Shown one piece after another: positions 1-63,930 of a DNA stretch of 64,000 nt (within the stretch, counting starts at the first letter, position 1; each line of letters begins with the position of its first letter). The DNA is from a virus. Taxonomy: Duplodnaviria; Heunggongvirae; Uroviricota; Caudoviricetes. The translations under genes were made by a program, and so were the position numbers. The notes under the pieces are model-generated. The model was not told the origin of the DNA and made no database searches. It saw nothing but the letters and a program-made list of their open reading frames with translations. The stretch is from IMG/VR virus record IMGVR_UViG_3300043436_004120, positions 1 through 64,000 of that record, one strand, 5' to 3'.

Positions 1-3
1 TTT

Positions 4-32
4 GTTGATTCTTTTTGTCAAATACTGTATAA
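4..32 (+). promoter_or_regulatory. sigma70-like promoter (TTGATT-N17-TATAAT)
   Basis: -35/-10 hexamers with 17-nt spacer at the window start, upstream of an ORF-free segment and tRNA-Glu. Confidence 0.35.
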
Positions 33-356
33 TTTATTTATAAATTAGTGAATTGGGTGACAGCGGAGGCGGGACTTATCTGCCATGCGTCTTAATTGTG
101 GGGAATAAATTACCCGAGCCACAGCCCTTAGCCCCTATAATAAATTGCTCAAACTGTGCTAGCCAGGTCTGCTGGTGCATGTATGCAGATTAACCCCACC
201 GGTAGGTCTCGGCCGAGACGGCGAAAGTGGTAGAATGCTGCAACTGTACCAGAGTTTGTTGAGTGATTTATTATGGGTGTTATGAGGCTCAACACTTGAT
301 GTTGGGATAACAACTTAATTGGGACCGAACAAACTCTAGTCCCAGCCAACTTTTAA

Positions 357-428
357 ACTTGATTCGTCTATCGGCTAGGACACCCGCCTTTCACGCGGAC
401 AAGACGGGTTCGATTCCCGTATCAAGTA
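357..428 (+). tRNA. tRNA-Glu(TTC)
   Basis: Cloverleaf folded by hand: acceptor ACTTGAT/ATCAAGT, D-arm TCGTCTATCGGCTAGGAC, anticodon loop CTTTCAC, T-arm ACGGG-TTCGATT-CCCGT, CCA encoded; resembles bacterial tRNA-Glu. Confidence 0.75.
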
Positions 429-430
429 CC

Positions 431-1640
431 AAACAAGGAGAGACAACTCCGTGCCCCTATAAGGCTGTGCAAAACCTAAACCGTGTTGCTTGCGAAACCC
501 GGCATGATGGTAACAAATAACCACCAATCCTCTGATGAGCACATGCAAGTTGTGCGAAACTCTAGGCCTTCGCGACGAGTGTGCGAGTGTTACCCACCAC
601 TCCACTCGTTGCAGCTTAGGGTCAGGACGAAACCCTGAAAGCAATAGCGAAAACTGAATCTGCCCACCCAGACTGGCCTAGTAGCTTCGGCGAAAACCCA
701 CGACGGCTTACGCAGTGCAACCCAGTAGCTAGCGGAAAGCAAGTAGTACTCCTAGTGAGCAGTTACTATATAAACTGTCGTCTTATCTGGTACCGACGTA
801 AAATGGTCTTGGTAGACTGGTGCACTGACGTACCCGAGCAATAACAACCCGTAAGGTGGTTCGACCCTAAGTTGCAGAGGGTTCGTAAAATTATCTAACC
901 GGAGACAACCGTATTAAACACCGACCCTAAACTGCACAGGGGTCACTAAAAATTGTGTGCAGGCGCTAAGCGTTGAAAGCGTAAGCCCACCCCAAGCTGT
1001 GGCAGGTGGTTAGATTGTCAGCAAAGGTGCAAGAGGAGCCCGCCCTCTACGGCTGAAGAGCTAAGCCAATACTGTTAGTCACGGATACTACAAGCGCTGG
1101 AACCGAAGTAGCTGAAACGTGCATTCCCCCTAGCACAATACTCACAGACTAACCCACTTGTGGTACGATTGCAACAGTTTAGGGTCAGGCACCGTGGTGG
1201 GTAAGTCCTGAATTGGATCACAGAGGAAACCTGGCAGTTGAAATACTGCACTACGACAACCACTATAAAAAACAGTAGGATCCACGTAGCTAAAATTAGC
1301 TGTTTCAAAAGCCCCTCAGCAGTCGCTCTGCCAGGGGCTTTTGTTTTGCCTGTAAAACACCAGGTGCGAAATTACACACGTGCCTGCGCCATTATGCCAT
1401 ACAGTGGTAATTCTTGTCAAGTGAGTTTTCCGACACTTGACCCTAAGCTGCAGTAAACGGCAGCAAATTGAACAGTTTTGCTAGACTCCAGGTTAGCACA
1501 TGCTCAAACAGCGTACATGTAGTCACAACGTGTTCTAATTCAACCGCCAAAAGAACATATCAATTTAGCAAACAAAAAAGCCCCACTATCCGATGATAAT
1601 GGGGCTTTTTGTCGTATTAGTGGCAATTATGTCAGATTAC
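431..1640. other. ORF-free region carrying at least 5 dispersed copies of the GACCCTAARYTG repeat in both orientations (candidate origin, packaging site or regulatory region)
   Basis: No credible ORF in any frame; repeat copies near 612, 863, 923, 1176, 1439; ends in a bidirectional terminator. Confidence 0.45.
1578..1611. terminator. bidirectional rho-independent terminator (AGCCCCA...TGGGGCT + T-run, A-run on the other side)
   Basis: GC stem-loop flanked by A-run and T-run; sits at the 3' end of the minus-strand operon. Confidence 0.6.
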
Positions 1641-1948
1641 TGCGATTTAGGGTCAGTTAAGGCACGCTCGATCATTACTAACACGGTTTTGTTTACCTTT
1701 TCTAGTGATTCCAGCAGCTCAAGGTTGGTGTTGAGTAAAATTGCTATGCGTTCGATGTGCTCCGACTTCTTTACCGGTGTTTCACCGCGCTTGTTAAGGT
1801 AGCTTTTCTTTTGGTAGACTCCTAGGCTCGATAGCTTGGCAATTATGCTACGCTCAGGCACTTCCAGCTCTAGTGCAAGCTGTGGCACCGAAACTCCACA
1901 GTTGTACTGTGCTACCATGTGGTCACAAATTTCTTTGGTGTATTTCAT
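1637..1948 (-). CDS. small helix-turn-helix DNA-binding protein (sigma region-4 / HTH_23-like)
   Basis: 103 aa; segment GVSVPQLALELEVPERSIIAKLSSLG has typical HTH periodicity; adjacent to the repeat-rich noncoding region. Confidence 0.45.
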   Translation of the reverse strand: MKYTKEICDHMVAQYNCGVSVPQLALELEVPERSIIAKLSSLGVYQKKSYLNKRGETPVKKSEHIERIAILLNTNLELLESLEKVNKTVLVMIERALTDPKSQ

Positions 1949-1958
1949 TTGGGCCTCT

Positions 1959-2780
1959 TTAAGCAGACCAAGGAAGGCTATTGTCGTTATTTTTATTAGC
2001 CTGAGGGGCTTTTGTAGTAGTTGCCAGCACTCTAGGATCTATAAAAATTTCCTGTGCTACTAGCGGTTTGGGCATATTATCCCAGTTAATTGGATCTAAA
2101 ATCATATACTCATTTCTGATGCTGGGGTGCGCTAGCCAGATTTGTGTAAGCATTGTTACTGCCAGCTTAGGCAGGTGGCCCAATTCGGTATCTTGAATAC
2201 CAGTCAGGGCCCATGTACTAAGAGGGTTCTTAGCTTGACCCTCAGTCCGACCGCTTTTAGCAAGCAAACCAAGTGTACGAATTTCTAGTAGTCGCTCTAA
2301 GCTAAGTTGTGGAACATCTTCTAACACCATTGCTTGGGCTAAGTTTTTATCTACAACATACCGTATGTCTTCACGATTCCAGTGTGAGTACGGGATGTTT
2401 TGGTACTTTTTCATGCCAGCCATAACAAGCGGAACTAAAGCTCCATAATGTGAGCCCTGTGGAGAATTCTGCTTTTGGATTAGTTTTCCTCGCGGAAGCT
2501 TTGTGGCTACTAGATACATTCCACGCAGTTTAGGGTCCGACCCTAAATTGTGCATAAGTGTTTGTGCTGCATCTATTTTTTCGTTTACGTAGATTGGTTT
2601 AAACTGACCAAATTTAGCAACCAACTGAGGCATCATCCAACTATTATACTGTGGAATTTTTTGTCGCTCAGCAACGTCTTCTAGTTCTTCTAAAGTTGCT
2701 TCTGCGAACTCTTCAAAAGGATATGCTGAGATATCCTGCTTCTTTAACACTACTCCTGTGTAGCGATTTAAAAATGTCAT
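1959..2780 (-). CDS. hypothetical protein (273 aa)
   Basis: Long ORF with no motif I can recognise; contains a palindromic copy of the repeated motif. Confidence 0.45.
   Translation of the reverse strand: MTFLNRYTGVVLKKQDISAYPFEEFAEATLEELEDVAERQKIPQYNSWMMPQLVAKFGQFKPIYVNEKIDAAQTLMHNLGSDPKLRGMYLVATKLPRGKLIQKQNSPQGSHYGALVPLVMAGMKKYQNIPYSHWNREDIRYVVDKNLAQAMVLEDVPQLSLERLLEIRTLGLLAKSGRTEGQAKNPLSTWALTGIQDTELGHLPKLAVTMLTQIWLAHPSIRNEYMILDPINWDNMPKPLVAQEIFIDPRVLATTTKAPQANKNNDNSLPWSA
2529..2547. repeat. near-perfect 19-bp palindrome TTTAGGGTCCGACCCTAAA (two inverted half-sites of the GACCCTAA motif)
   Basis: Read directly from the sequence; operator-like dyad symmetry. Confidence 0.6.
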
Positions 2781-3169
2781 GTTTGACCCTAAAGTGTAAA
2801 AACCTTATTGCTAAGGTAAAAATCCCCGGCTAGAGCCAGGTGGTTGAAAGGTGGGAAAATTACTTAACCCACAAAAATTGCTTTGGTTTTATCAAATAAC
2901 ACAAAGCAATAAAAAACAAAATACTTGCCCCATTAAGCAACTGCTGGGTAGTTATATTAGATAAATTACCCTAAATTGCATCAGCCTTTGAAACCTAACC
3001 TCGACGGGGCTCGTAAGTTTCAAGCTAACGCATTTAGTGAATTTATCACTATAACTACAATACTTAACTCTCTAAATTATATTAAATTATAGCACACTCG
3101 ATAATCAAAAAGCAAGCGTATTTTTATATGAGGAGATAGTTTGTGATTTTCTTTGTCAGTGGCTGTGCA

Positions 3170-3427
3170 TTAGCCTTGAATAAGCGCTTTGGCCTTGGTG
3201 GCAATTTGTTCCCGACTTAGGGTCAGATCAATGTATTGGTAGTGTTCTAGGGCAGCAACAATTGCAAGGAAATCTTCGAGTTCACCAACCAGCTCTTGTA
3301 AATTAGTTGTGGTTCGATCAGGGTGTGAGTTCTGTGGGCCAAACCGGTTAATTTTCGAAACAGCTTGAATTACTTCGGCTGCTTCTTCCTGCAGTTTGGC
3401 TGTTAAGTATTGGATTTTGTAACTCAT
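3170..3427 (-). CDS. MazG-like nucleotide pyrophosphohydrolase (putative)
   Basis: 85 aa all-helical protein with an EExxE...ELxxELxD pattern typical of the small MazG/HisE fold. Confidence 0.4.
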   Translation of the reverse strand: MSYKIQYLTAKLQEEAAEVIQAVSKINRFGPQNSHPDRTTTNLQELVGELEDFLAIVAALEHYQYIDLTLSREQIATKAKALIQG

Positions 3428-3571
3428 GTTTTTGGTGCTGTAGTAAATATTATAACGTTTTTTGGTGTGTTTGTCTAGGGTTGTTTTTAGGGTTGCGGCT
3501 GACTTGGTATTCGGCCAACTTGGTCCATTGGAGTTTTGTTACATTGCAGGTAGCAACAAATCGGCTAGACT

Positions 3572-3841
3572 TTAATCAAAAGCATGTACCACAAAGTACC
3601 CACCACCTGTTTGTTGTTGATAGCTGCACACATAGTTCCAGGCATCAGGAACTGTTTCACCAGTCATGGCCAAGTACACTTCATACTCATGTGCTTCTAG
3701 GTGCAGTTCGTCTTGTGCAACCTGAAACCAACCAAAAAGTTTGCCATCTTGATCGTTGATGTACCTGAGCTTGATTAGGTGGTCAGCTTCTACAGGTATA
3801 GTGTTCATGCCAGGGTGTAGTCGGTGTTTGATAATTCTCAT
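3572..3841 (-). CDS. hypothetical protein
   Basis: 89 aa ORF inside the minus-strand operon. Confidence 0.4.
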   Translation of the reverse strand: MRIIKHRLHPGMNTIPVEADHLIKLRYINDQDGKLFGWFQVAQDELHLEAHEYEVYLAMTGETVPDAWNYVCSYQQQTGGGYFVVHAFD

Positions 3842-3991
3842 TGGATAAAGTGCTCCGCTAGTGTGTTAATGCACCAGAATAGTACACAGGCTATACCCAC
3901 AGCAATGGCTGCTGTGGGTATTAACAGTATTACTGCAACAAGCATGGCGAGTAGAATTGCAATAGCTACACAGACTTTGGGTGGAGGTAAT

Positions 3992-4345
3992 TTATTCAGC
4001 ATCAACAATCTCCAGGAAGCGGTACAGTGTCATTGTGGTAGGATCGTATTCCACACCGTTGATTGAGAACTCCATTTTGCGAGTTCCATTGTCAGTTTCA
4101 TACATCCACCAGGTCAGCCAGTCCCACAATTCTGGGCCTAAGAGTTCTTCAACAAGTTTAGTGTATGCAGCTTCTAGTGGCTCACAGACACTGAAAAGGT
4201 AGTTGTCCGACCCTAAGCTGCGGAGAGCGGAGTTAACCATGTCCATGGCAGCACTTTGCTGGATACTGGCCATGGCATAGTCATAAGCGATTTTGTGTGT
4301 TTGTTTCATATTAGTTGTGTTTTTGATATTTACGTAGGTTTTCAC
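3992..4345 (-). CDS. hypothetical protein
   Basis: 117 aa ORF, Trp-rich. Confidence 0.4.
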   Translation of the reverse strand: MKTYVNIKNTTNMKQTHKIAYDYAMASIQQSAAMDMVNSALRSLGSDNYLFSVCEPLEAAYTKLVEELLGPELWDWLTWWMYETDNGTRKMEFSINGVEYDPTTMTLYRFLEIVDAE

Positions 4346-4808
4346 GGTCTAAGAAACTTTCCGATACCGGAATACGTCCAAATAGTTCGTAGTTGGTTAG
4401 GGCTTGAGTTTTGCAAACTGTGGTAGGCTTGGGTGCTCCAGTGCTGCTGATAACCCAGACCTTGTTGCCCGGTTGGACAAAAAACCCATCAGCGGTTACA
4501 CCCACAGCACGCGAGTTTAGCACTGCTTGTGCAAACTGTTCCAGCTCAGCACGCTGTACCGGGCCAATATCGGCCCAAGCACGCAGCCTGGGTGTTTGGT
4601 CTAGTAGGGTTTTTAAGTCCATTTTAGTCGGCTCGGGTACGTTTGTGGTAGTCTGTTTTGGCAAAGGTTGTTTGGGAATACAACCGTGTTGGCTGCAATG
4701 TTTGACAGTTTCGCAACTGTCACAAATAGGGTGTGTCATGTTAGCTCCAGGTGCGGTGGGCTTCAGCAACCCACTCACACCCATCGTATTCGTGAATAGT
4801 CCACTCAA
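4311..4808 (-). CDS. hypothetical Cys-rich protein
   Basis: 165 aa; C-terminal CDSCETVKHCSQHGC cluster. Confidence 0.45.
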   Translation of the reverse strand: MSGLFTNTMGVSGLLKPTAPGANMTHPICDSCETVKHCSQHGCIPKQPLPKQTTTNVPEPTKMDLKTLLDQTPRLRAWADIGPVQRAELEQFAQAVLNSRAVGVTADGFFVQPGNKVWVISSTGAPKPTTVCKTQALTNYELFGRIPVSESFLDRENLRKYQKHN

Positions 4809-6514: not shown

Positions 6515-6701
6515 AACAATCCTCTAGAATATGTGTTCTGCAAATTTCACTGGCTTCATCAAATGTAGGCCAGCGTTTGTGTTCGTCGTAGTAGTGGTAA
6601 GCTTCGCAAACTATACATCCACGAAAGTATTCTGAGCAGCGCTTGCCATAACCAAAGCCACGCTTTTGATTGGCTCGGCGACGCATTTTGCGTAGCTTCA
6701 T
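6486..6701 (-). CDS. hypothetical protein
   Basis: 71 aa, basic N-terminus. Confidence 0.35.
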   Translation of the reverse strand: MKLRKMRRRANQKRGFGYGKRCSEYFRGCIVCEAYHYYDEHKRWPTFDEASEICRTHILEDCYESKDWTVR

Positions 6702-7355: not shown

Positions 7356-7590
7356 ATTTGTTTAATTGTTTGAGTGTTTGAAGATCAGTAACCGGCTGGT
7401 AATTAGACTTGGCCATTGGCACAATGCAATGCTTGAAAGCACGTGCAACTTTCTCGCCACATGGTAGACAAGTGTGTTTGCCCAATGCCCAACGGCGTGG
7501 GTTTACGTCATCTGAACATTTTACGCAAAAATACAACATTGAAGTCTCCGAAATATGAATTATTATATCACGATAACTCAGAGACTTCAA
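7342..7590 (-). CDS. C4 zinc-ribbon protein, TraR/DksA-like (putative RNAP-binding regulator)
   Basis: 82 aa; CxxC-x15-CxxC with Arg-rich spacer (CVKCSDDVNPRRWALGKHTCLPCGE). Confidence 0.4.
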   Translation of the reverse strand: MKSLSYRDIIIHISETSMLYFCVKCSDDVNPRRWALGKHTCLPCGEKVARAFKHCIVPMAKSNYQPVTDLQTLKQLNKYART

Positions 7591-7960: not shown

Positions 7961-8215
7961 TTATACGTACCTGTGTTCTGGATGACGTCCAGCATCAAAA
8001 GCCGCCGTCATCCACTGCGTAATAATTTCAAAACGCCGCTGTGGGTCGGATGTACCATTTACCAGGTCATAAAAACGCTCTGAACGTAGTCCATAACTTT
8101 CAGGTTCGTTAAACCAACGATCAAACTCTGCATACTCATACTCTGGCTTTACCATTGCGCTTCTCCAGCAATAAGTTTGCGGTGCTGAATCCAGCCACGA
8201 AGATTGCCCGACCAC
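7961..8215 (-). CDS. hypothetical protein
   Basis: 84 aa ORF. Confidence 0.4.
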   Translation of the reverse strand: MVGQSSWLDSAPQTYCWRSAMVKPEYEYAEFDRWFNEPESYGLRSERFYDLVNGTSDPQRRFEIITQWMTAAFDAGRHPEHRYV

Positions 8216-9075
8216 AAGTCACCGTTGGCACTTACATGAGTAACGCCACTTTCCCAGGTTTCTGGCTCGTAGTAACAATAAGTAGACAAGTCCATTGGCG
8301 TTGCTTGATGCTCAACTGGTGAGGCATGGCAAGGTTGCGATTCGATTAGCTGCTTAAAGATCTTGTGTGCTTTTTCATAGCTGTCGTCTGACTTGCGGTA
8401 GCTGACCTGTGCACAGCAACTGGCCGAAATGATACGGGCTTGTTCTGTGGTAATTGGTGTGTCGGTTGCGTCTAGATAGATAAGTTCGCCGCTGCTTAAA
8501 CGGTGCGATTTAACATAAGGCAGGTGCCACTCACCAGGGTGCAGCAATTGTGGGCTACTCTGATTATGTGCATCCCACATTTTCACAGCCAATTCATGAA
8601 TCTCTGGCTGTGCATCGGCATGAGCACGCAGCCAAAAGAAGTTAGCCCACTCTGTGCCACTGATAACAGTTTTCATAAGCATCCAAGGCTCTGTGATGCG
8701 GTTGGCTACTTGTTTGTGCAACCCCACACGTTCGGCCATTTGCTGTGCCCAGTGCATGGCATCTTGCTGTGCACGCTGCCACATAAACTTGGCATCAGCC
8801 AAGTTGTTGTCAGTTAATTCCTCTTTAGCCTGCATACCTGGCTGGTTCTTGCCCCAGTGCACAGGTTGTGCTGGATTTTCAGTCATGTGTTGGTGCATGG
8901 CTTTAACCGGAATAGCTCGGCTACTTGCACTATTCTTGCTTAGCATACGATGCGTGTTGAGTTCAGCTAAGATAAACCGTGGGTACTCGATTTCCATTGT
9001 GGTCATACGAACACCATCTGGTGAAACTGAGTCGGCTAGGATACGTGCTGTAATAAGTTCTTGGGCTGTTTTCAT
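8149..9075 (-). CDS. thyX: FAD-dependent thymidylate synthase ThyX-like
   Basis: 308 aa; segment ELNTHRMLSKNSASSRAIP resembles the ThyX RHRx7-8S signature; size and context (phage nucleotide metabolism) fit. Confidence 0.55.
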   Translation of the reverse strand: MKTAQELITARILADSVSPDGVRMTTMEIEYPRFILAELNTHRMLSKNSASSRAIPVKAMHQHMTENPAQPVHWGKNQPGMQAKEELTDNNLADAKFMWQRAQQDAMHWAQQMAERVGLHKQVANRITEPWMLMKTVISGTEWANFFWLRAHADAQPEIHELAVKMWDAHNQSSPQLLHPGEWHLPYVKSHRLSSGELIYLDATDTPITTEQARIISASCCAQVSYRKSDDSYEKAHKIFKQLIESQPCHASPVEHQATPMDLSTYCYYEPETWESGVTHVSANGDLWSGNLRGWIQHRKLIAGEAQW

Positions 9076-9281: not shown

Positions 9282-9996
9282 CGTTCATGGCATTGTAGTA
9301 ACCATGAGGATTAGCAACCACACGAGTATCACCAAGCACAATATCTGTAGCATCATGTGTGTGGCCAAAAAGCCAAGTAGCATCAGACATAGTAGAAATA
9401 TACTCACCAAGATTATTAGCAAAGTAGTCATTTAGTAGGTTAGCTCCACGCCAACGTGGTGCAATGCACTCACGAGCTGGCAAAAAGTGTGTGACAACCA
9501 CAACTTTACTACCCTCACGATGTTCGTATTGATCTTTGATAAAATCAAAGTGTTGGTAGTAGGTTTGTGCACAACGGTTAACATCAAAGTCACGGATCAC
9601 ACGAAAATCATTGATGCCACGCTTGGCTGCACTTTGACTAAACGGATTAGCATCAAAGTTAGTCCACAGTGTACCACCAACAAATAACACATCGTCAATT
9701 TCAACAGTACCAGGGTTTAAAAAGTGCACGCCTTCAATGTCGGCACATTTAGCTGCCATTTTGGTGTTAAAGTCATCAAAGCTGGTACCATAGTACTCAT
9801 GGTTGCCAGGCACGTACACAATCTCGGGGAAGCCACAATCTAAAAAGTGTTTGATAACATCAATGGTATTGGTTGAGCCACTGGCAATGTCGCCAGCAAG
9901 CACAAGCACATCTTCACCACGATACTCCGACATTTGGTGAGTTTTGTAAGGTAAGCGGAATTCTGTGTGTAGGTCTGAAAGTAGTCTGATTTTCAT
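9241..9996 (-). CDS. calcineurin-like metallophosphoesterase
   Basis: 251 aa with GDIASG..GNHEYYG..GHTHD motif series. Confidence 0.65.
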   Translation of the reverse strand: MKIRLLSDLHTEFRLPYKTHQMSEYRGEDVLVLAGDIASGSTNTIDVIKHFLDCGFPEIVYVPGNHEYYGTSFDDFNTKMAAKCADIEGVHFLNPGTVEIDDVLFVGGTLWTNFDANPFSQSAAKRGINDFRVIRDFDVNRCAQTYYQHFDFIKDQYEHREGSKVVVVTHFLPARECIAPRWRGANLLNDYFANNLGEYISTMSDATWLFGHTHDATDIVLGDTRVVANPHGYYNAMNDGVGFDPFKTIEV

Positions 9997-11599: not shown

Positions 11600-11795
11600 A
11601 CAGCTATCAGGTACTCGCAAGACCCTAACCCAAGCCTGCCTAGACGCAGGCGTAGACATAGAAGACGTAGATGATTACTTGCTGGAACAGTGGGTCAAAG
11701 AATGTTCACACTGCGGTATTTGGGGCACTGACCACAGAACTGATTCGGACGACTTTCCAGTGTGCCGAATTTGTTTTGGCTTAGTTGGTCGATAA
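11562..11795 (+). CDS. small zinc-ribbon protein
   Basis: 77 aa; CSHCG-x16-CRIC. Confidence 0.4.
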   Translation: MTDTNPTYRRLTKQLSGTRKTLTQACLDAGVDIEDVDDYLLEQWVKECSHCGIWGTDHRTDSDDFPVCRICFGLVGR

Positions 11796-16778: not shown

Positions 16779-16903
16779 TTTATAAGTTTGACCCTAAGTT
16801 GGAGTGATTACCAATCCTTTACGAACGGACTAATCCACCTAGTAGTTGCAATAGGCCCACGTCTCAACTCAAAATTGCCCGTGGTTAGGGTTAAACTTAT
16901 AAA
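16779..16903. repeat. 19-bp inverted repeat TTTATAAGTTTGACCCTAA / TTAGGGTTAAACTTATAAA flanking ~87 nt, immediately upstream of an ACACTTG..TATAAT promoter
   Basis: Read directly; the arms carry the GACCCTAA core. Confidence 0.55.
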
Positions 16904-16958
16904 TATTCACTTGAACACACAGCTTAACTGCTGTATAATTAATCTTTAAACAAACAAC

Positions 16959-17030
16959 ACTCCGGTCGTCTAGTGGCTAGGACGCCAGCCTTTCAAGTTG
17001 GAGAAGCGGGATCGAAACCCGTTCGGAGTA
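16959..17030 (+). tRNA. tRNA-Glu(TTC), second copy
   Basis: Acceptor ACTCCGG/TCGGAGT, D-arm TCGTCTAGTGGCTAGGAC, anticodon loop CTTTCAA, T-loop ATCGAAA (slightly atypical). Confidence 0.65.
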
Positions 17031-17044
17031 CCAAAAATTTTCAT

Positions 17045-18651: not shown

Positions 18652-18927
18652 CCAAATTGGGTCTAAAGTGTTCATGGACGCACACGGCACTGTCACTGCC
18701 GAAGAGTGGGGATCGTTACCCCCTAGACCCGCCAAAACCTGCCTTAGGTCCGTGCCGTTCCGGTTAGAGCGTCCGTAATCCAATCGGTAGCTACGACAAT
18801 GCTACGCTGTATATCGTAAGCAGCATTATTATTTTAGTATATAACTATCCATTATAAACAAGCAGCAGAGACGCTGTTGTCCAACGATCACATCATCGGG
18901 GTAAGGGGTTGTATGCTAAAATAATAT

Positions 18928-20131: not shown

Positions 20132-20239
20132 CCATATTTTAGCACACTGCTCGCCACTTAATAAATAAATGCAGAGCCGCACCGGTCACGCTTTCTGCGG
20201 GTAACTAGAAACACCTGGCCAGGGTTTAATCTAGCTTGG

Positions 20240-20690
20240 GTAGTGTGCTAAAATATGGTTGTATGAAGCAAAAAGAAAAGAATTCTGGACGCGGGTTCGA
20301 CTCCCGCCAGCTCCACCATAAGCGCGCGCAGAGGGTAGTATGTAAGCCATAAGTACATTGGCTGAGGACTGGGATTCCCTTCCTACTAACAGTAGGGCGC
20401 TTTTGATGGGGCTGCCTTGGTTTCGACAGGGTTACAAGTAAGCAAGTGGACAACTAGGTAATGCAGAAGCCTTAGGATTGGGGATTCCCGGTCGCAGAAG
20501 CAAAACAAAAATAAACGCAAACGATCAAGTTTACGCTTTAGCAGCTTAATTGCCGCTTAGGGTTTGGCCAGTTCCTCGTAACAGAATACTGGCACTATAG
20601 TTTAGCACTTTAGAAGCCCACACCTTGTCGACTAGGGTATCTAGAACGTGGTTACGACGCCTGTCCGTTAGAGTGCTAAACTATATTAAA
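20240..20690 (+). ncRNA. ssrA: circularly permuted (two-piece) tmRNA (ssrA): acceptor piece ~20240-20318 ending GGACGCGGGTTCGACTCCCGCCAGCTCCACCA; coding piece from ~20408 (GGGGCTGCCTTGGTTTCGACAGGG) with tag reading frame 20517-20549 (A)ANDQVYALAA
   Basis: The 3' segment is near-identical to the E. coli tmRNA 3' end but lies UPSTREAM of the GGGGCUG...UUCGAC 5' segment; tag ORF GCAAACGATCAAGTTTACGCTTTAGCAGCTTAA; two ~16-bp long-range stems (20141/20241 and 20596/20676) flank the pieces. Confidence 0.8.
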
Positions 20691-22267: not shown

Positions 22268-22296
22268 TTGCAAAGTTACCCTAAATCTAGTATAAT
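22268..22296 (+). promoter_or_regulatory. sigma70 promoter TTGCAA-N17-TATAAT
   Basis: Consensus hexamers; followed by SD AGGGGG and the ATG of the fibre gene. Confidence 0.6.
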
Positions 22297-48406: not shown

Positions 48407-48613
48407 CGTTAAAATTTCGTAGGGTGCGCCAATGCACTTGCCCAAAAATACCCAGCATAATTTCTTATTACCGTGCATTTATGCTCCAGGAACCCTAAAA
48501 GTTGGGTTGCGCTGATTGCAAAACTGTTGTATAATTACCTCAGTTCTTAAATTTTAAGAGCTGCGCAGTGATACGCAGTATCATATCTATCCACAACACA
48601 GAAACTTATTTAT

Positions 48614-63246: not shown

Positions 63247-63930
63247 TTATTTATAAACGTACTTATCCTTGTATTTAGCACGTTCAGTTGTAGTATAGTC
63301 CAAATAAGCATCTACTTTTGCCCGCCAGTCTACATCGACTTCGGGATTAATAATACCAGATTTAGGACTACTCAATGCTCGATTTACCCACGATTTAGGG
63401 TCTTGTTGAGTAAATAGAAACTTATTTACATGGTAAAAGCTACCTTGCTCTACCTTATTATATGAATCAATAGGCTCTATTGTTTTGTCAAGACATACGG
63501 CGTACACAGCGGACTCACTCATATGAGAAGTATAAACTACTTCGGTTTCGTCCGCCAGGAGCAGCTTATACATATCAGCGTCTCGCTCTGTTACATTGGT
63601 GCTGCCAAATAAGTCTTTTAGCTCACCAATTAACTGATGTGTAGTTAGTGGATGTGGTTTAAACCAAACCTCATCTTCGTGCTTATCTTTAATCCACTGT
63701 AGTTTATTTAAGCAAATTCTTTCTTTTAATTTATTAGAACCTACTAAAATAACTAGTGCCTCTCTTGGAGTGTATTCTTGCACTTTGTCAATGTGTTCAT
63801 ACTTATTGGAGTTACGATTAGTGACTCTATCTTTAAAGTATTCTACATAATCGACCTGTGTGGCTGTTGTATCATTATAAGCATCCAACATTTGTTGGAT
63901 TCGTAATTCTTGTTGCAATGGGTGCATCAT
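63247..63930 (-). CDS. hypothetical protein
   Basis: 227 aa ORF upstream of the S74-domain gene. Confidence 0.45.
   Translation of the reverse strand: MMHPLQQELRIQQMLDAYNDTTATQVDYVEYFKDRVTNRNSNKYEHIDKVQEYTPREALVILVGSNKLKERICLNKLQWIKDKHEDEVWFKPHPLTTHQLIGELKDLFGSTNVTERDADMYKLLLADETEVVYTSHMSESAVYAVCLDKTIEPIDSYNKVEQGSFYHVNKFLFTQQDPKSWVNRALSSPKSGIINPEVDVDWRAKVDAYLDYTTTERAKYKDKYVYK

Follow-up and report, generated by a model that had tools for sequence, protein, structure and literature searches.

The structured RNA locus

The stretch analysed here, called the window, covers positions 1 to 64,000 of the IMG/VR virus record IMGVR_UViG_3300043436_004120. Sequence and comparison show positions 1-1345 to make up a predicted transcription unit, whose product would be a structured, conserved non-coding RNA (ncRNA). 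Its elements, and those that follow up to position 1948, are:

5-33, + strand: sigma-70-type promoter TTGATT-17-TATAAT, from a consensus scan, which would drive a rightward ncRNA/tRNA-Glu transcript
53-131, + strand: ncRNA block A (GGGUGACAGCGG...CGUCUUAAUUGUGGGG...CCGAGCCACAGCCC), near-invariant in the window and its relatives L003 and L005
277-352, + strand: ncRNA block B, GGAUAACAACUUAAUUGG followed by a hairpin and GCC, from alignments
357-431, + strand: tRNA-Glu(UUC) between block B and the hammerhead, from ARAGORN, Rfam and alignments
512-648, + strand: type-I hammerhead, from a covariance model, covariation and the minimum-free-energy fold
1310-1345: terminator 1, a G+C-rich hairpin with T-runs on both strands, at the 3' end of the rightward ncRNA
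1391-1420, - strand: leftward sigma-70 promoter P_L, TTGACA-18-CATAAT, conserved in 33 lineages
1575-1610: bidirectional terminator 2, flanked by the inward-facing motif copies G3 and T4
1637-1948, - strand: 103-aa protein, predicted to form two three-helix bundles and a candidate for reading the motif

The -10 element and flanks of the first promoter are conserved in L003 and L005, and in L006 and L007 the ncRNA is preceded by equivalent TTGACT/TTGCAG-17-TATAAT promoters. Block A, also found in L006, has no Rfam match. Block B adjoins the hammerhead directly in most relatives, a tRNA-Glu occupying this position only in the window, L003 and L012. The hairpin arms of block B vary between lineages and are still complementary (GGGAC/GUCCC, GGUGAC/GUCACC, GCGAC/GUCGC), as judged by eye without a formal count.

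A preliminary description had presented 431-1640 as an ORF-free segment flanked by the densest cluster of copies. The segment indeed holds no conserved ORF, only chance ORFs of at most 89 aa, but it is not an empty site array: a ribozyme and conserved RNA blocks lie in it, together with a promoter of consensus type and two terminators. The main nature of the region had been overlooked: on the sequence evidence, it is a putative transcribed, structured ncRNA locus with a hammerhead that has the motif copy at 612 as its predicted cleavage site.

A predicted hammerhead at a motif boundary

The hammerhead core nucleotides are complete (CUGAUGA at 532-538, GAAA at 556-559). Stem II pairs 539-543 with 551-555, an extended stem III pairs 559-567 with 614-622, and stem I pairs CCU (529-531) with AGG (624-626), cleavage being predicted after the scissile C623 (GUC/A). 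A covariance model built without the window sequence scores the window at 99.7 bits (E ~3e-26, single match). In the covariation counts, stem II is 97.5% paired, with four of its five pairs changed on both sides, and stem III is 85% paired, with two compensated pairs; slid controls reach 22-43%. The minimum-free-energy fold recovers stems II and III (z = -3.7). The Rfam hammerhead models made no call on 512-648, even at E up to 10. Each genome carries only one hammerhead core, and none was found in the parts of T5 and Vibrio phage Thalassa that were searched.

The motif copy at 609-623 is the substrate strand of the ribozyme, and the predicted cut falls exactly at the motif boundary. Ribozyme and motif are nevertheless separable, because the ribozyme persists in some relatives whose cleavage-site sequence differs: five lineages retain it and the remaining motif series while the cleavage-site strand is non-motif. 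Conversely, L006, where the neighbouring protein shares just 47% identity, has the motif and lacks the ribozyme. Since the motif persists where the ribozyme site is mutated or the ribozyme absent, its function is independent of the ribozyme.

Abundance and placement of the motif

The preliminary description had reported 23 copies of a partly palindromic repeat. The repeat is real and far above chance. In the window, the core GACCCTAA occurs 21 times against 1.3 expected, which makes it the joint-commonest 8-mer; exact GACCCTAARYTG occurs 12 times (0.02 expected), and GACCCTAARYYGYRG with at most one mismatch 16 times (0.09 expected). A copy was located at or within about 10 nt of every position that had been reported, some coordinates being wrong by a few bases (39996 for 40005, 24343 for 24334). 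The figure of 23 is reached only if degenerate variants are counted (TACCCTAA at 2967 and 24333, ACCCTAA at 22278 and 22307, AACCCTAA at 48492). The palindromic character did not hold up: the consensus yTGACCCTAA-RYYGYRGCAA (68 copies, six lineages) is asymmetric, about 18 nt long, and combines a strict 8-mer with a looser 10-mer, its variable positions showing transitions only (R/Y); CTGCAG is found in some copies only. The copies are placed as follows:

609-623, - strand: T0 (GACCCTAAGCTGCAA); in + strand RNA, the 3' strand of hammerhead stem III and the cleavage site
863-937, + strand: G1a (863-877) and G1b (923-937), in a block (833-897) highly conserved with L003
1172-1186, - strand: T2, a conserved island amid variable sequence
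1439-1453, + strand: G3, 18 bp upstream of the P_L -35; best fit to the extended consensus
1640-1654, - strand: T4, over the final D-P-K codons and the stop codon of the helix-turn-helix (HTH) gene
2523-2553: back-to-back pair TTTAGGGTC-C-GACCCTAAA, within a 273-aa ORF (1959-2780)
2785-2796 (+), 2967-2981 (+, TACCCTAA variant), 3213-3224 (-), 4209-4223 (+): further cluster copies
11621, 16790, 20719, 21486, 30241, 34064, 40005, 43845, 44467, + strand: dispersed GACCCTAA copies
11418, 24333, 25848, 48492, + strand: dispersed near-matches
22278/22307: tail-to-tail ACCCTAA dyad surrounding a -10 element
16885, 20557, 24030, 44431, - strand: ACCCTAA 7-mers
63388-63402, - strand: dispersed copy in a leftward-transcribed region, on the sense strand

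Eleven of the 21 cores, on both strands, fall within 616-4216 (binomial P ~4e-9). Several copies lie at or just past stop codons and beside terminators, and in the L007 group the equivalent of T4 lies immediately past the stop codon of the HTH gene. Outside the cluster the copies favour the sense strand: each of the nine exact cores in 11-50 kb has the same orientation as the genes around it, and over the loci the count is 16 sense to 5 antisense. Many copies are intragenic.

The motif as a repeat of bacterial or host genomes is ruled out, the check yielding 44 single matches in 596 Gb against ~139 expected by chance.

The motif is kept in the same order and orientation in more than 30 uncultured T5-like relatives from IMG/VR. 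The succession T0-G-T-(terminator)-G-(terminator)-T holds in ~30 lineages, with the neighbouring protein down to 33% identity, and the DNA between the conserved copies diverges. Orthologues of the copies at 2785, 2967 and 4209 occur in L003/L005. In relatives TerL-TerS-(HNH)-promoter comes first, followed by small genes over ~6-7.5 kb, the ncRNA, the motif cluster and leftward early genes. Directly upstream of the terminase-operon promoter, or over its -35, these genomes carry motif or motif-like repeats (GACCCTAA, GACCCCAA, GCCCCAA, GTCCCCAA), helically phased with a 9-11 bp period. The small-gene block thus has motif or motif-like arrays at both edges.

The relation to P_L is fixed: in 33 distinct loci the motif lies 17-21 bp upstream of the -35 of a promoter of the TTGACA-17/18/19-TATAAT type, the site occupying about -57 to -75. 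Its orientation relative to P_L differs from that relative to the terminase promoter. The promoter spacers at 22278 and 30241 hold motif copies; as a general rule, placement inside promoters fails, since strong promoter-like sites contain only 9 of 281 copies across the family, the background rate. The four dyads or fusions quoted earlier as operator-like are all present in the sequence, but they lend the operator argument little, as the one at 2529 is intragenic and L003/L005, the closest relatives, retain only its GACCCTAA half.

L022, an unrelated phage from the same metagenome, carries this core within 22-bp palindromes that lie immediately 5' of ribosome-binding sites, a hint that an RNA hairpin or a host factor common to both phages may be involved.

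Function of the motif

The preliminary description suspected a binding site for a phage-encoded regulator. This remains the best-supported reading, on account of the asymmetric, conserved ~18-nt site, its spacing from P_L, the terminase arrays and the flanking HTH genes, and with little help from the dyads. We consider the chances evenly balanced that a sequence-specific regulator recognises the motif on DNA, the likeliest regulators being the small D5-like HTH paralogues that flank the locus. That these proteins are the readers is a guess. The 1637-1948 product is 42% identical to one of three small D5-like (phrog_323/phrog_1725) HTH paralogues in L004 and ~40% identical to the other two, which match the PHROG families 'transcriptional regulator, D5-like' and 'DNA binding protein' and lie on the opposite side of the ncRNA, in relatives just left of the window position. 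For the window protein itself neither PHROG nor Pfam gives a hit; its fold and family (HTH, Pfam) matches are weak, all below significance, and its AF2 model (pLDDT 84) predicts two bundles joined by a linker.

Under the regulator reading, the protein, most likely a member of this two-domain family (1637-1948 and the three paralogues left of the window in relatives), would bind as a monomer. The dense array extends from the ribozyme site into the first early genes, at the junction between these and the small-gene block by the terminase operon, a block standing at the map place of the T5 terminal repeat. Bound protein could control the conserved leftward P_L from its fixed upstream position, and could flank and reinforce both bidirectional terminators, insulating convergent transcription. 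Isolated sites might tune single units, as in the spacers at 22278 and 30241 or, in relatives, ahead of the terminase promoter. On this view the ribozyme and the motif are independent modules whose overlap at one site is coincidental. Counting against a regulator, most copies are away from promoters, many are intragenic, and the motif is oriented differently towards P_L than towards the terminase promoter. The sense-strand bias outside the cluster also speaks against a plain operator and fits an RNA-level, replication-linked or other polar signal, and the L022 palindromes are a further point against it.

Among the alternatives, it is unlikely, if worth serious attention, that the terminase small subunit, or some other protein that handles DNA, reads the array as the right edge of a terminal repeat, with the motif-like array by the terminase genes marking the left edge. 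In that case the cluster would correspond in function to the T5 injection stop signal (iss) and Repeat Region 3. The synteny of the relatives mirrors the T5 order of TerS operon start, terminal repeat, 1-1.8 kb untranslated iss region and leftward early genes, and motif or motif-like arrays stand at both edges of the small-gene block. Mixed-orientation arrays of asymmetric sites are typical of terminase small-subunit sites such as the lambda cosB R sites. However, no terminal repeat is demonstrable, the IMG/VR contig ends being scattered; about ten further copies are dispersed and strand-biased, which is unusual for pac/cos; the T5 iss hallmarks (DnaA boxes, nested direct/inverted repeats, the T5 nick consensus) are absent; and the fixed promoter spacing is left unexplained. 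Rather improbable is an element acting in transcripts as GACCCUAA, sense in most genes, that pairs with complementary UUAGGGUC segments of the ncRNA, one of which would form precisely the 3' terminus of the 5' cleavage product. Alternatively, it could act near the 3' ends of mRNAs as a signal for processing or stability, or UUAGGGUC/AGG copies could be extra hammerhead substrates. The predicted cut at the motif boundary, the substrate-like UUAGGGUC-AGG reading of T2, the sense bias outside the cluster, the copies at or after stop codons and near terminators, the R/Y transitions (tolerable through G-U wobble) and the hairpin-forming palindromes in 5' UTRs of L022 all point this way. Yet the non-motif cleavage strand of the five lineages with ribozyme and motif series makes the ribozyme-defined 'guide' end dispensable, L006 has the motif without a ribozyme, the extensions of neighbouring opposite copies show no covariation beyond the shared consensus, and each genome has a single hammerhead core. 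In addition, the spacing of G3 from a promoter is fixed at the DNA level, and the stretch from terminator 1 to G3 showed no rightward promoter that would transcribe this copy.

It is very unlikely that the motif is a favoured priming site or the consensus at which single strands are nicked, as happens site-specifically in T5, BF23, tf and phiKMV-like phages. The classical T7 primase recognition sequence, 5'-GGGTC-3', is contained in TTAGGGTC. In favour, T5-like phages do have site-specific nicks, a major T5 nick lying inside the iss region, nick consensuses in other phages are over-represented, asymmetric 9-20-mers on one strand only (PMC3517423), and the nine copies in 11-50 kb are all on one strand. 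Against it, the cluster copies alternate strands at 60-300 bp spacing, with one pair back to back, and known nick systems keep to one strand. The T5 consensus R/GCGCRGG is not enriched in the window (3 found, 4 expected), and an 18-nt site at a fixed promoter distance far exceeds what a primase needs. The iteron-type origin proposed for the ORF-free segment is unsupported and barely credible. The segment is non-coding, carries a repeated word and lies beside replication-era early genes, but it has no tandem direct repeats or iterons, no excess of DnaA boxes and, because its G+C content is 46-52% against a window mean of 43%, no AT-rich unwinding element. No adjacent initiator gene was found, and the segment is accounted for by the ncRNA gene, promoters and terminators.

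Comparison with known systems

The ribozyme shares with Rfam Hammerhead_1 and related families the full core CUGAUGA...GAAA, G10.1-C11.1, A15.1-U16.1, the GUC cleavage triplet and a three-helix junction with covarying stems II/III and open stem I; its CCU...GUC/AGG flavour recurs in 5' UTRs of unrelated phages. Unlike known hammerheads, it has a 25-45-nt extension of stem III and only three invariant pairs in stem I, sits within a ~1.3-kb conserved ncRNA rather than standing alone, and uses as substrate strand what is usually a genome-wide DNA motif. GOLLD and ROOL are large structured phage-borne ncRNAs beside tRNA genes. The window ncRNA likewise is a ~1-kb conserved phage RNA adjoining a tRNA gene and richer in G+C than the genome on average; unlike them, it carries a self-cleaving ribozyme, and it has no Rfam match to GOLLD, ROOL or another family.

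Like the nick consensuses of T5 (R/GCGCRGG), tf (TACT/RTGMC) and phiKMV-like phages (PMC3517423), the motif is an over-represented, asymmetric, lineage-specific oligomer; unlike them, it occurs on both strands, alternating in the cluster, and does not resemble the T5 consensus. The T5 injection stop signal and Repeat Region 3 (Davison, bioRxiv 10.1101/866236; NC_005859 annotation) are comparable in being 1-2 kb, untranslated, repeat-bearing and at the same map position. Both regions lie between a small-gene block by the terminase operon and leftward early genes, the terminal-repeat boundary being putative in the window phage. The window region differs in having no sequence similarity, DnaA boxes, nested direct repeats, inverted repeats/palindromes or nick consensus.

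The lambda cosB R sites and P1 pac hexamers are binding arrays of terminase small subunits. They too are short asymmetric repeats in mixed orientation over a few hundred bp, near packaging genes or a genome end, and in relatives a phased motif-like array lies just upstream of TerS; unlike them, the motif has copies genome-wide and within genes. Phage P1 also has dispersed, asymmetric, monovalent 17-bp C1 operators. Unlike P1, the window phage appears virulent and T5-like, most motif copies are off promoters, they are strongly clustered in one region and biased in strand, and the reader is a candidate. What the two share is an asymmetric site of ~17-18 bp in many copies over a large phage genome, with occasional paired or inverted arrangements and some copies over promoters.

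An RNA gene with a hammerhead ribozyme

The stretch at 431-1640, which the preliminary description flagged as an ORF-free array of binding sites, is in fact an RNA gene with a hammerhead ribozyme. That description had not seen the ribozyme-bearing noncoding RNA (ncRNA), which is a more concrete result than the function of the repeat motif. Relatives of the phage were retrieved through the adjacent 273-aa protein, and the IMG/VR contigs L003-L009 range from 78% down to 33% identity to that protein. The features of the locus are as follows.

1-1345, ncRNA unit, bounded by a promoter (5-33) and terminator 1 (1310-1345)
53-131, conserved block A
277-352, conserved block B
357-431, tRNA-Glu
512-648 (+), hammerhead ribozyme
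609-623 (-), motif copy T0
737-812 and 833-897, further conserved blocks
863-937 (+), motif copies G1a and G1b
1172-1186 (-), motif copy T2
1391-1420 (-), leftward promoter P_L
1439-1453 (+), motif copy G3
1637-1948 (-), gene of the 103-aa HTH protein
1640-1654 (-), motif copy T4
1959-2780, gene of the 273-aa protein

Alignment of the window with L003 and L005 revealed an invariant block, CTGATGAG-CACAtgcaagtTGTG-CGAAAC, corresponding to a hammerhead core and stem II. The type I hammerhead core consists of C3-U4-G5-A6-N7-G8-A9, G12-A13-A14 and an NUH cleavage triplet, and the window has CUGAUGA at 532-538, GAAA at 556-559 and GUC ending at C623. The strand after GAAA (ACUCUAGG) is complementary to CUUAGGGU at 615-622, and C623 is the predicted scissile nucleotide of the GUC triplet, where cleavage would leave a 2',3'-cyclic phosphate and a 5'-OH. 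Of 41 stretches returned by a pattern scan of IMG/VR, 34 were distinct and real, and each locus has one hammerhead core. The core bases are invariant across these 34 relatives, the first search pattern having fixed the core and cleavage bases and the second, which left the cleavage-site strand free, still giving GUC or GUA.

Pairing was assessed in an alignment (A2) against a specified structure. Stem II is 97.5% paired, with four of its five pairs changed on both sides. In stem III, where pairing reaches 85%, two pairs are compensated, further compensated variants being present in L094, L102 and L113. Pairing over the whole hammerhead reaches 81.7%, against 22-43% in slid-partner controls. 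The three-helix architecture is supported by covariation in stems II and III; stem I has three invariant pairs (CCU/AGG) and is hence uninformative on this point. A covariance model built from 22 relatives, with the window excluded, gave a single hit in the window at 512-648 (+), scoring 99.7 bits (rough E about 3e-26), and the minimum-free-energy fold of 515-645 recovers stems II and III (z = -3.7). Conserved GCCC and CGAAAyCCC lie upstream and downstream of stem I, respectively; no pairing scheme emerged from them for a tertiary contact between the stem I and stem II loops, the contact on which activity at physiological Mg2+ depends. The covariance model found no hammerhead in the searched parts of T5 and Vibrio phage Thalassa. 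The Rfam hammerhead models gave no hit at the gathering threshold, nor at E up to 10 in the window and up to 5 in the relatives. The miss is likely due to the long insertion in stem III and the short stem I, and a gathering score is a criterion of curation, not of mechanism. With this locus comes a hammerhead variant that escapes the current Rfam models and is set in a kilobase-scale phage ncRNA.

The ncRNA segment has a G+C content of 46-52%, compared with a window mean of 43%, and the hairpin arms of its four conserved blocks vary complementarily between lineages, as judged by eye. Block B adjoins the ribozyme in most relatives, and tRNA-Glu stands between them only in the window, L003 and L012; the tRNA appears to be a lineage-specific insertion into an RNA gene. 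Block A (GGGUGACAGCGG...CGUCUUAAUUGUGGGG...CCGAGCCACAGCCC) has no match in Rfam and is also present in L006 (about 11690-11775), a contig that carries no hammerhead. Possibly it forms a structured domain or motif of its own.

The second scan also found the same CCU...GUC/AGG type of hammerhead in 5' UTRs of unrelated phages. Compact forms, CCU-CUGAUGAG...GAAAC-hairpin-GUC/AGG, are carried by the unrelated viral contigs L096-L101, L105, L107, L109, L118, L120, L124 and L127-L131, several of them only a few tens of nucleotides upstream of a start codon, which suggests 5'-UTR processing.

A conserved, asymmetric motif of phage origin

The dispersed repeat is genuine and conserved. In the window, GACCCTAARYTG occurs 12 times against 0.02 expected, the core GACCCTAA occurs 21 times against 1.3 expected, as the joint commonest 8-mer, and a 15-mer version with one mismatch allowed has 16 sites against 0.09 expected. 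The presence of the repeat far beyond chance is thus upheld, whereas the total of 23 copies reported earlier takes in degenerate variants, the exact core numbering 21. Eleven of the 21 cores fall within 616-4216 (P about 4e-9). Strands are divided 14 (+) to 7 (-) and alternate inside the cluster. Beyond the cluster, copies favour the sense strand (nine of nine at 11-50 kb, and 16 to 5 over loci, a count inflated by orthologous sites); the directions of transcription and, likely, replication are collinear in the window, so that this bias is compatible with either. The consensus of 68 copies from six lineages, yTGACCCTAA-R-Y-Y-G-Y-R-G-C-A-A, combines a strict 8-mer with a looser 10-mer behind it. 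It is asymmetric, and the site is not palindromic; a partly palindromic repeat had been proposed. As in the operator set of a regulator, the consensus spans at least 14 bp and many copies are kept in relatives.

Clusters of GACCCTAA occupy the same place in all of L003-L009. In about 30 lineages the same series is found, with the following steps along the ribozyme strand (distances in nucleotides).

Step 1, TTAGGGTC copy at the ribozyme site (T0)
Step 2, GACCCTAA at about +110 to +515, mostly +160 to +320
Step 3, TTAGGGTC at about +210 to +640, mostly +430 to +600
Step 4, terminator
Step 5, GACCCTAA
Step 6, bidirectional terminator
Step 7, TTAGGGTC at the stop codon of the HTH gene

Copies are retained between lineages while the intervening DNA diverges. 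A 19-mer version gave 44 hits, all single-copy, in 185,579 bacterial species genomes (596 Gb), below the approximately 139 expected by chance, and the motif is therefore not a repeat of the host genome, an uptake sequence or a REP-like element.

At step 7, the C-terminal D-P-K of the HTH protein (1637-1654) is at least 90% conserved in 31 homologues and merely translates GACCCTAAA; in the L007 group, the motif copy falls past the stop codon. From these comparisons, the DNA word rather than the peptide seems to be what is kept.

The motif core also occurs in another architecture. L022, a contig of an unrelated phage that shares its source metagenome with L004, has five 22-bp palindromes (6566-6587, 7546-7567, 8175-8196, 8957-8978 and 9940-9961), four of them perfect GTCTTAGGGTCGACCCTAAGAC; in four of the five, a ribosome-binding site follows 10-25 nt downstream. 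This contig came from the first pattern scan, and its 'hammerhead' match is due to chance.

Separability of ribozyme and motif

In five lineages (L094, L102, L104, L113 and L119), which retain both the ribozyme and the series of motif copies downstream of it, the cleavage-site strand is not the motif but CUGUGGGUC, CUGGGGGUC, UUUGGGGUC or CUGAGGGUC, and the opposite strand has changed to compensate. L006 has the motif and block A without the ribozyme, and L108 has the ribozyme without a motif copy in the 4.4 kb downstream of it. Judged by these lineages, ribozyme and motif are separable, and their overlap at T0 is frequent but not required. The five non-motif strands weaken the idea that the ribozyme-matured 3' end must act as an antisense 'guide'. 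RNA helices reaching from one copy to another of opposite orientation were rejected, because their apparent 12-16-bp complementarity stems from the shared consensus; neighbouring copies show no covariation in their extensions, and the L003 orthologue of the copy at 923 is degenerate with its supposed pairing partner intact. No second hammerhead or other known ribozyme was found at the other UUAGGGUC/AGG copies by core scan, covariance model or Rfam.

Function of the motif

The proposal of a binding site for a phage-encoded regulator remains the best hypothesis for this conserved site of about 18 nt. Positional evidence is strongest for the DNA itself: the G3 copy lies 17-21 bp upstream of the -35 element of P_L in 33 distinct loci, where the promoter consists of TTGACA and TATAAT or a near-variant, 17-19 bp apart and most often 18 (1420-1391 in the window). 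In relatives, the terminase-operon promoter is preceded by the motif or by helically phased motif-like units, or has the motif overlapping its -35, and two window copies lie inside promoter spacers (22278 and 30241). What does not stand is a general association with promoters, as 9 of 281 copies fall within strong promoter-like sites, which is the background rate. The motif is also not itself a promoter or -35 element: 68 copies have no -10 at a fixed distance, and only some supply a TTGACC -35.

A candidate reader is encoded at the locus. The HTH protein is 42% identical to one of three small L004 proteins located beyond the ncRNA and about 40% identical to the other two, and these three paralogues match the PHROG family 'transcriptional regulator, D5-like'. 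Its AlphaFold model (pLDDT 84) has two three-helix bundles and a linker, and a protein of this predicted form would suit a two-part asymmetric site. Searches for its fold or family with Foldseek, PDB sequences and Pfam gave sub-threshold leads only (Tc3/IstA/Pax-type bipartite HTH, the GcrA N-terminus and IF2_N). Because of the P_L geometry, the terminase-promoter arrays, the spacer copies, the D5-like paralogues and the two-bundle model, we favour, with roughly even confidence, sites of a monomer-binding phage regulator that are concentrated at the junction of the small-gene block and the early genes, with the HTH protein and its D5-like paralogues as candidate readers.

Two side observations concern these promoters. 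P_L is a near-perfect sigma-70 promoter, and in the window its transcription would meet terminator 1 at once and yield an RNA of some 80 nt (region 1305-1384); the corresponding hairpin of the L007 group lacks a U-run on the P_L strand, so that the P_L transcript would traverse the hammerhead in antisense. Upstream of TerS in L004 (about 18800-18870), and at equivalent places in L005, L023 and L040, tandem units (GACCCTAA, GACCCCAA, GCCCCAA and GTCCCCAA, with a period of about 9-11 bp) directly precede a consensus TTGCC-17-TATAAT terminase-operon promoter, where L018-type lineages have ACACCCTAAGGTGCC.

The main rival is a role as repeat boundary or packaging site. Synteny places the locus at the end of the left terminal repeat and injection stop signal of T5; however, no T5 hallmark was found there, and contig breaks in IMG/VR gave no consistent end point of a terminal repeat. 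We regard this role as unlikely. A function of the motif in RNA is suggested by the predicted ribozyme cut exactly at the motif edge, by the fact that every variable motif position is a transition, and by the L022 palindromes just upstream of ribosome-binding sites, but it is weakened by the separability of ribozyme and motif and by the G3/P_L geometry, and we regard it as rather improbable.

Two further readings concern replication and nicking. Site-specific nick sites of the T5/tf/phiKMV type are very improbable, since copies on both strands, alternating in the cluster, do not show confinement to a single strand, and the T5 consensus R/GCGCRGG occurs 3 times in the window against 4 expected. 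For an iteron-type origin, raised earlier as an equal possibility, tandem direct repeats, an AT-rich unwinding element, an excess of DnaA boxes and an adjacent initiator gene were looked for at the locus, each with a negative outcome, and such an origin is scarcely probable at all.

The phage and its clade

The source of the window is a large, apparently virulent phage, represented by its early half. The window carries 26 tRNA genes and a permuted tmRNA, and its genes form three blocks.

1.6-10.5 kb, leftward small genes
11-50 kb, rightward tRNA and replication genes, including those of a DnaB-like helicase, DNA polymerase, an SbcC-like subunit and ribonucleotide reductase
beyond 50 kb, leftward genes

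No cultured close relative was found: there is no nucleotide match among 50,697 phage records, the DNA polymerase shares no more than about 50% identity with its counterparts in T5-like Vibrio phages (Demerecviridae), and the 273-aa protein is matchless among phage records. Database relatives of the HTH protein number over 2,000; they are unnamed or 'hypothetical' throughout and chiefly metagenomic, and several lie on contigs of 87-102 kb. The clade appears to be abundant in metagenomes yet uncultured. The tmRNA (20226-20640), within the tRNA array, is of the two-piece type with the tag ANDQVYALAA, and may hint at the host lineage because two-piece tmRNAs are known from alpha- and some beta-proteobacteria and from cyanobacteria. 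The two tRNA-Glu(UUC) genes, at 357-431 and 16959-17033, are not identical in sequence. A 21-nt inverted repeat (TATTTATAAGTTTGACCCTAA and its near-complement, 16779-16905) flanks some 70 bp located between tRNA-Phe and the second tRNA-Glu; within these 70 bp stands CCUAGUAG, a string also present in the 3' domain of the ncRNA (about 681-688).

Comparison with the T5 injection stop signal

DNA injection by T5-type phages proceeds in two steps, with a cis-acting stop signal in a long untranslated region. In T5, this large region closes the left terminal repeat on its right side and is followed at once by the early genes, which run leftward; the synteny of the window locus fits this position. 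The sequence hallmarks differ. T5 has paired DnaA boxes in inverted repeats, and the window locus does not; boxes matching TTWTNCACA number 8 in 64 kb against 11.7 expected, with only one in 431-1640. T5 also has nested direct repeats, inverted repeats, palindromes and a major nick with R/GCGCRGG, an ensemble not seen here: apart from a few two-copy matches, the repeat families of 1-4400 consist almost wholly of motif copies.

The motif cluster and the ribozyme ncRNA could nevertheless do in this clade what the injection stop signal and terminal-repeat boundary do in T5. A putative phage protein on the GACCCTAA array would halt or mark the DNA at the end of the first-entering segment, in place of the DnaA boxes proposed for T5, and the ncRNA would be among the first transcripts there. 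We consider this conjecture distinctly improbable; if the motif is merely an ordinary operator set, it is a routine addition to phage regulation. To our knowledge, the stop-signal region of T5 is still not understood despite decades of work. At the same map position, the present clade offers a much cleaner arrangement, namely a series of an 18-nt word, a consensus promoter at a fixed distance and a ribozyme RNA, and with it testable handles in the form of one protein family, one site and one RNA.
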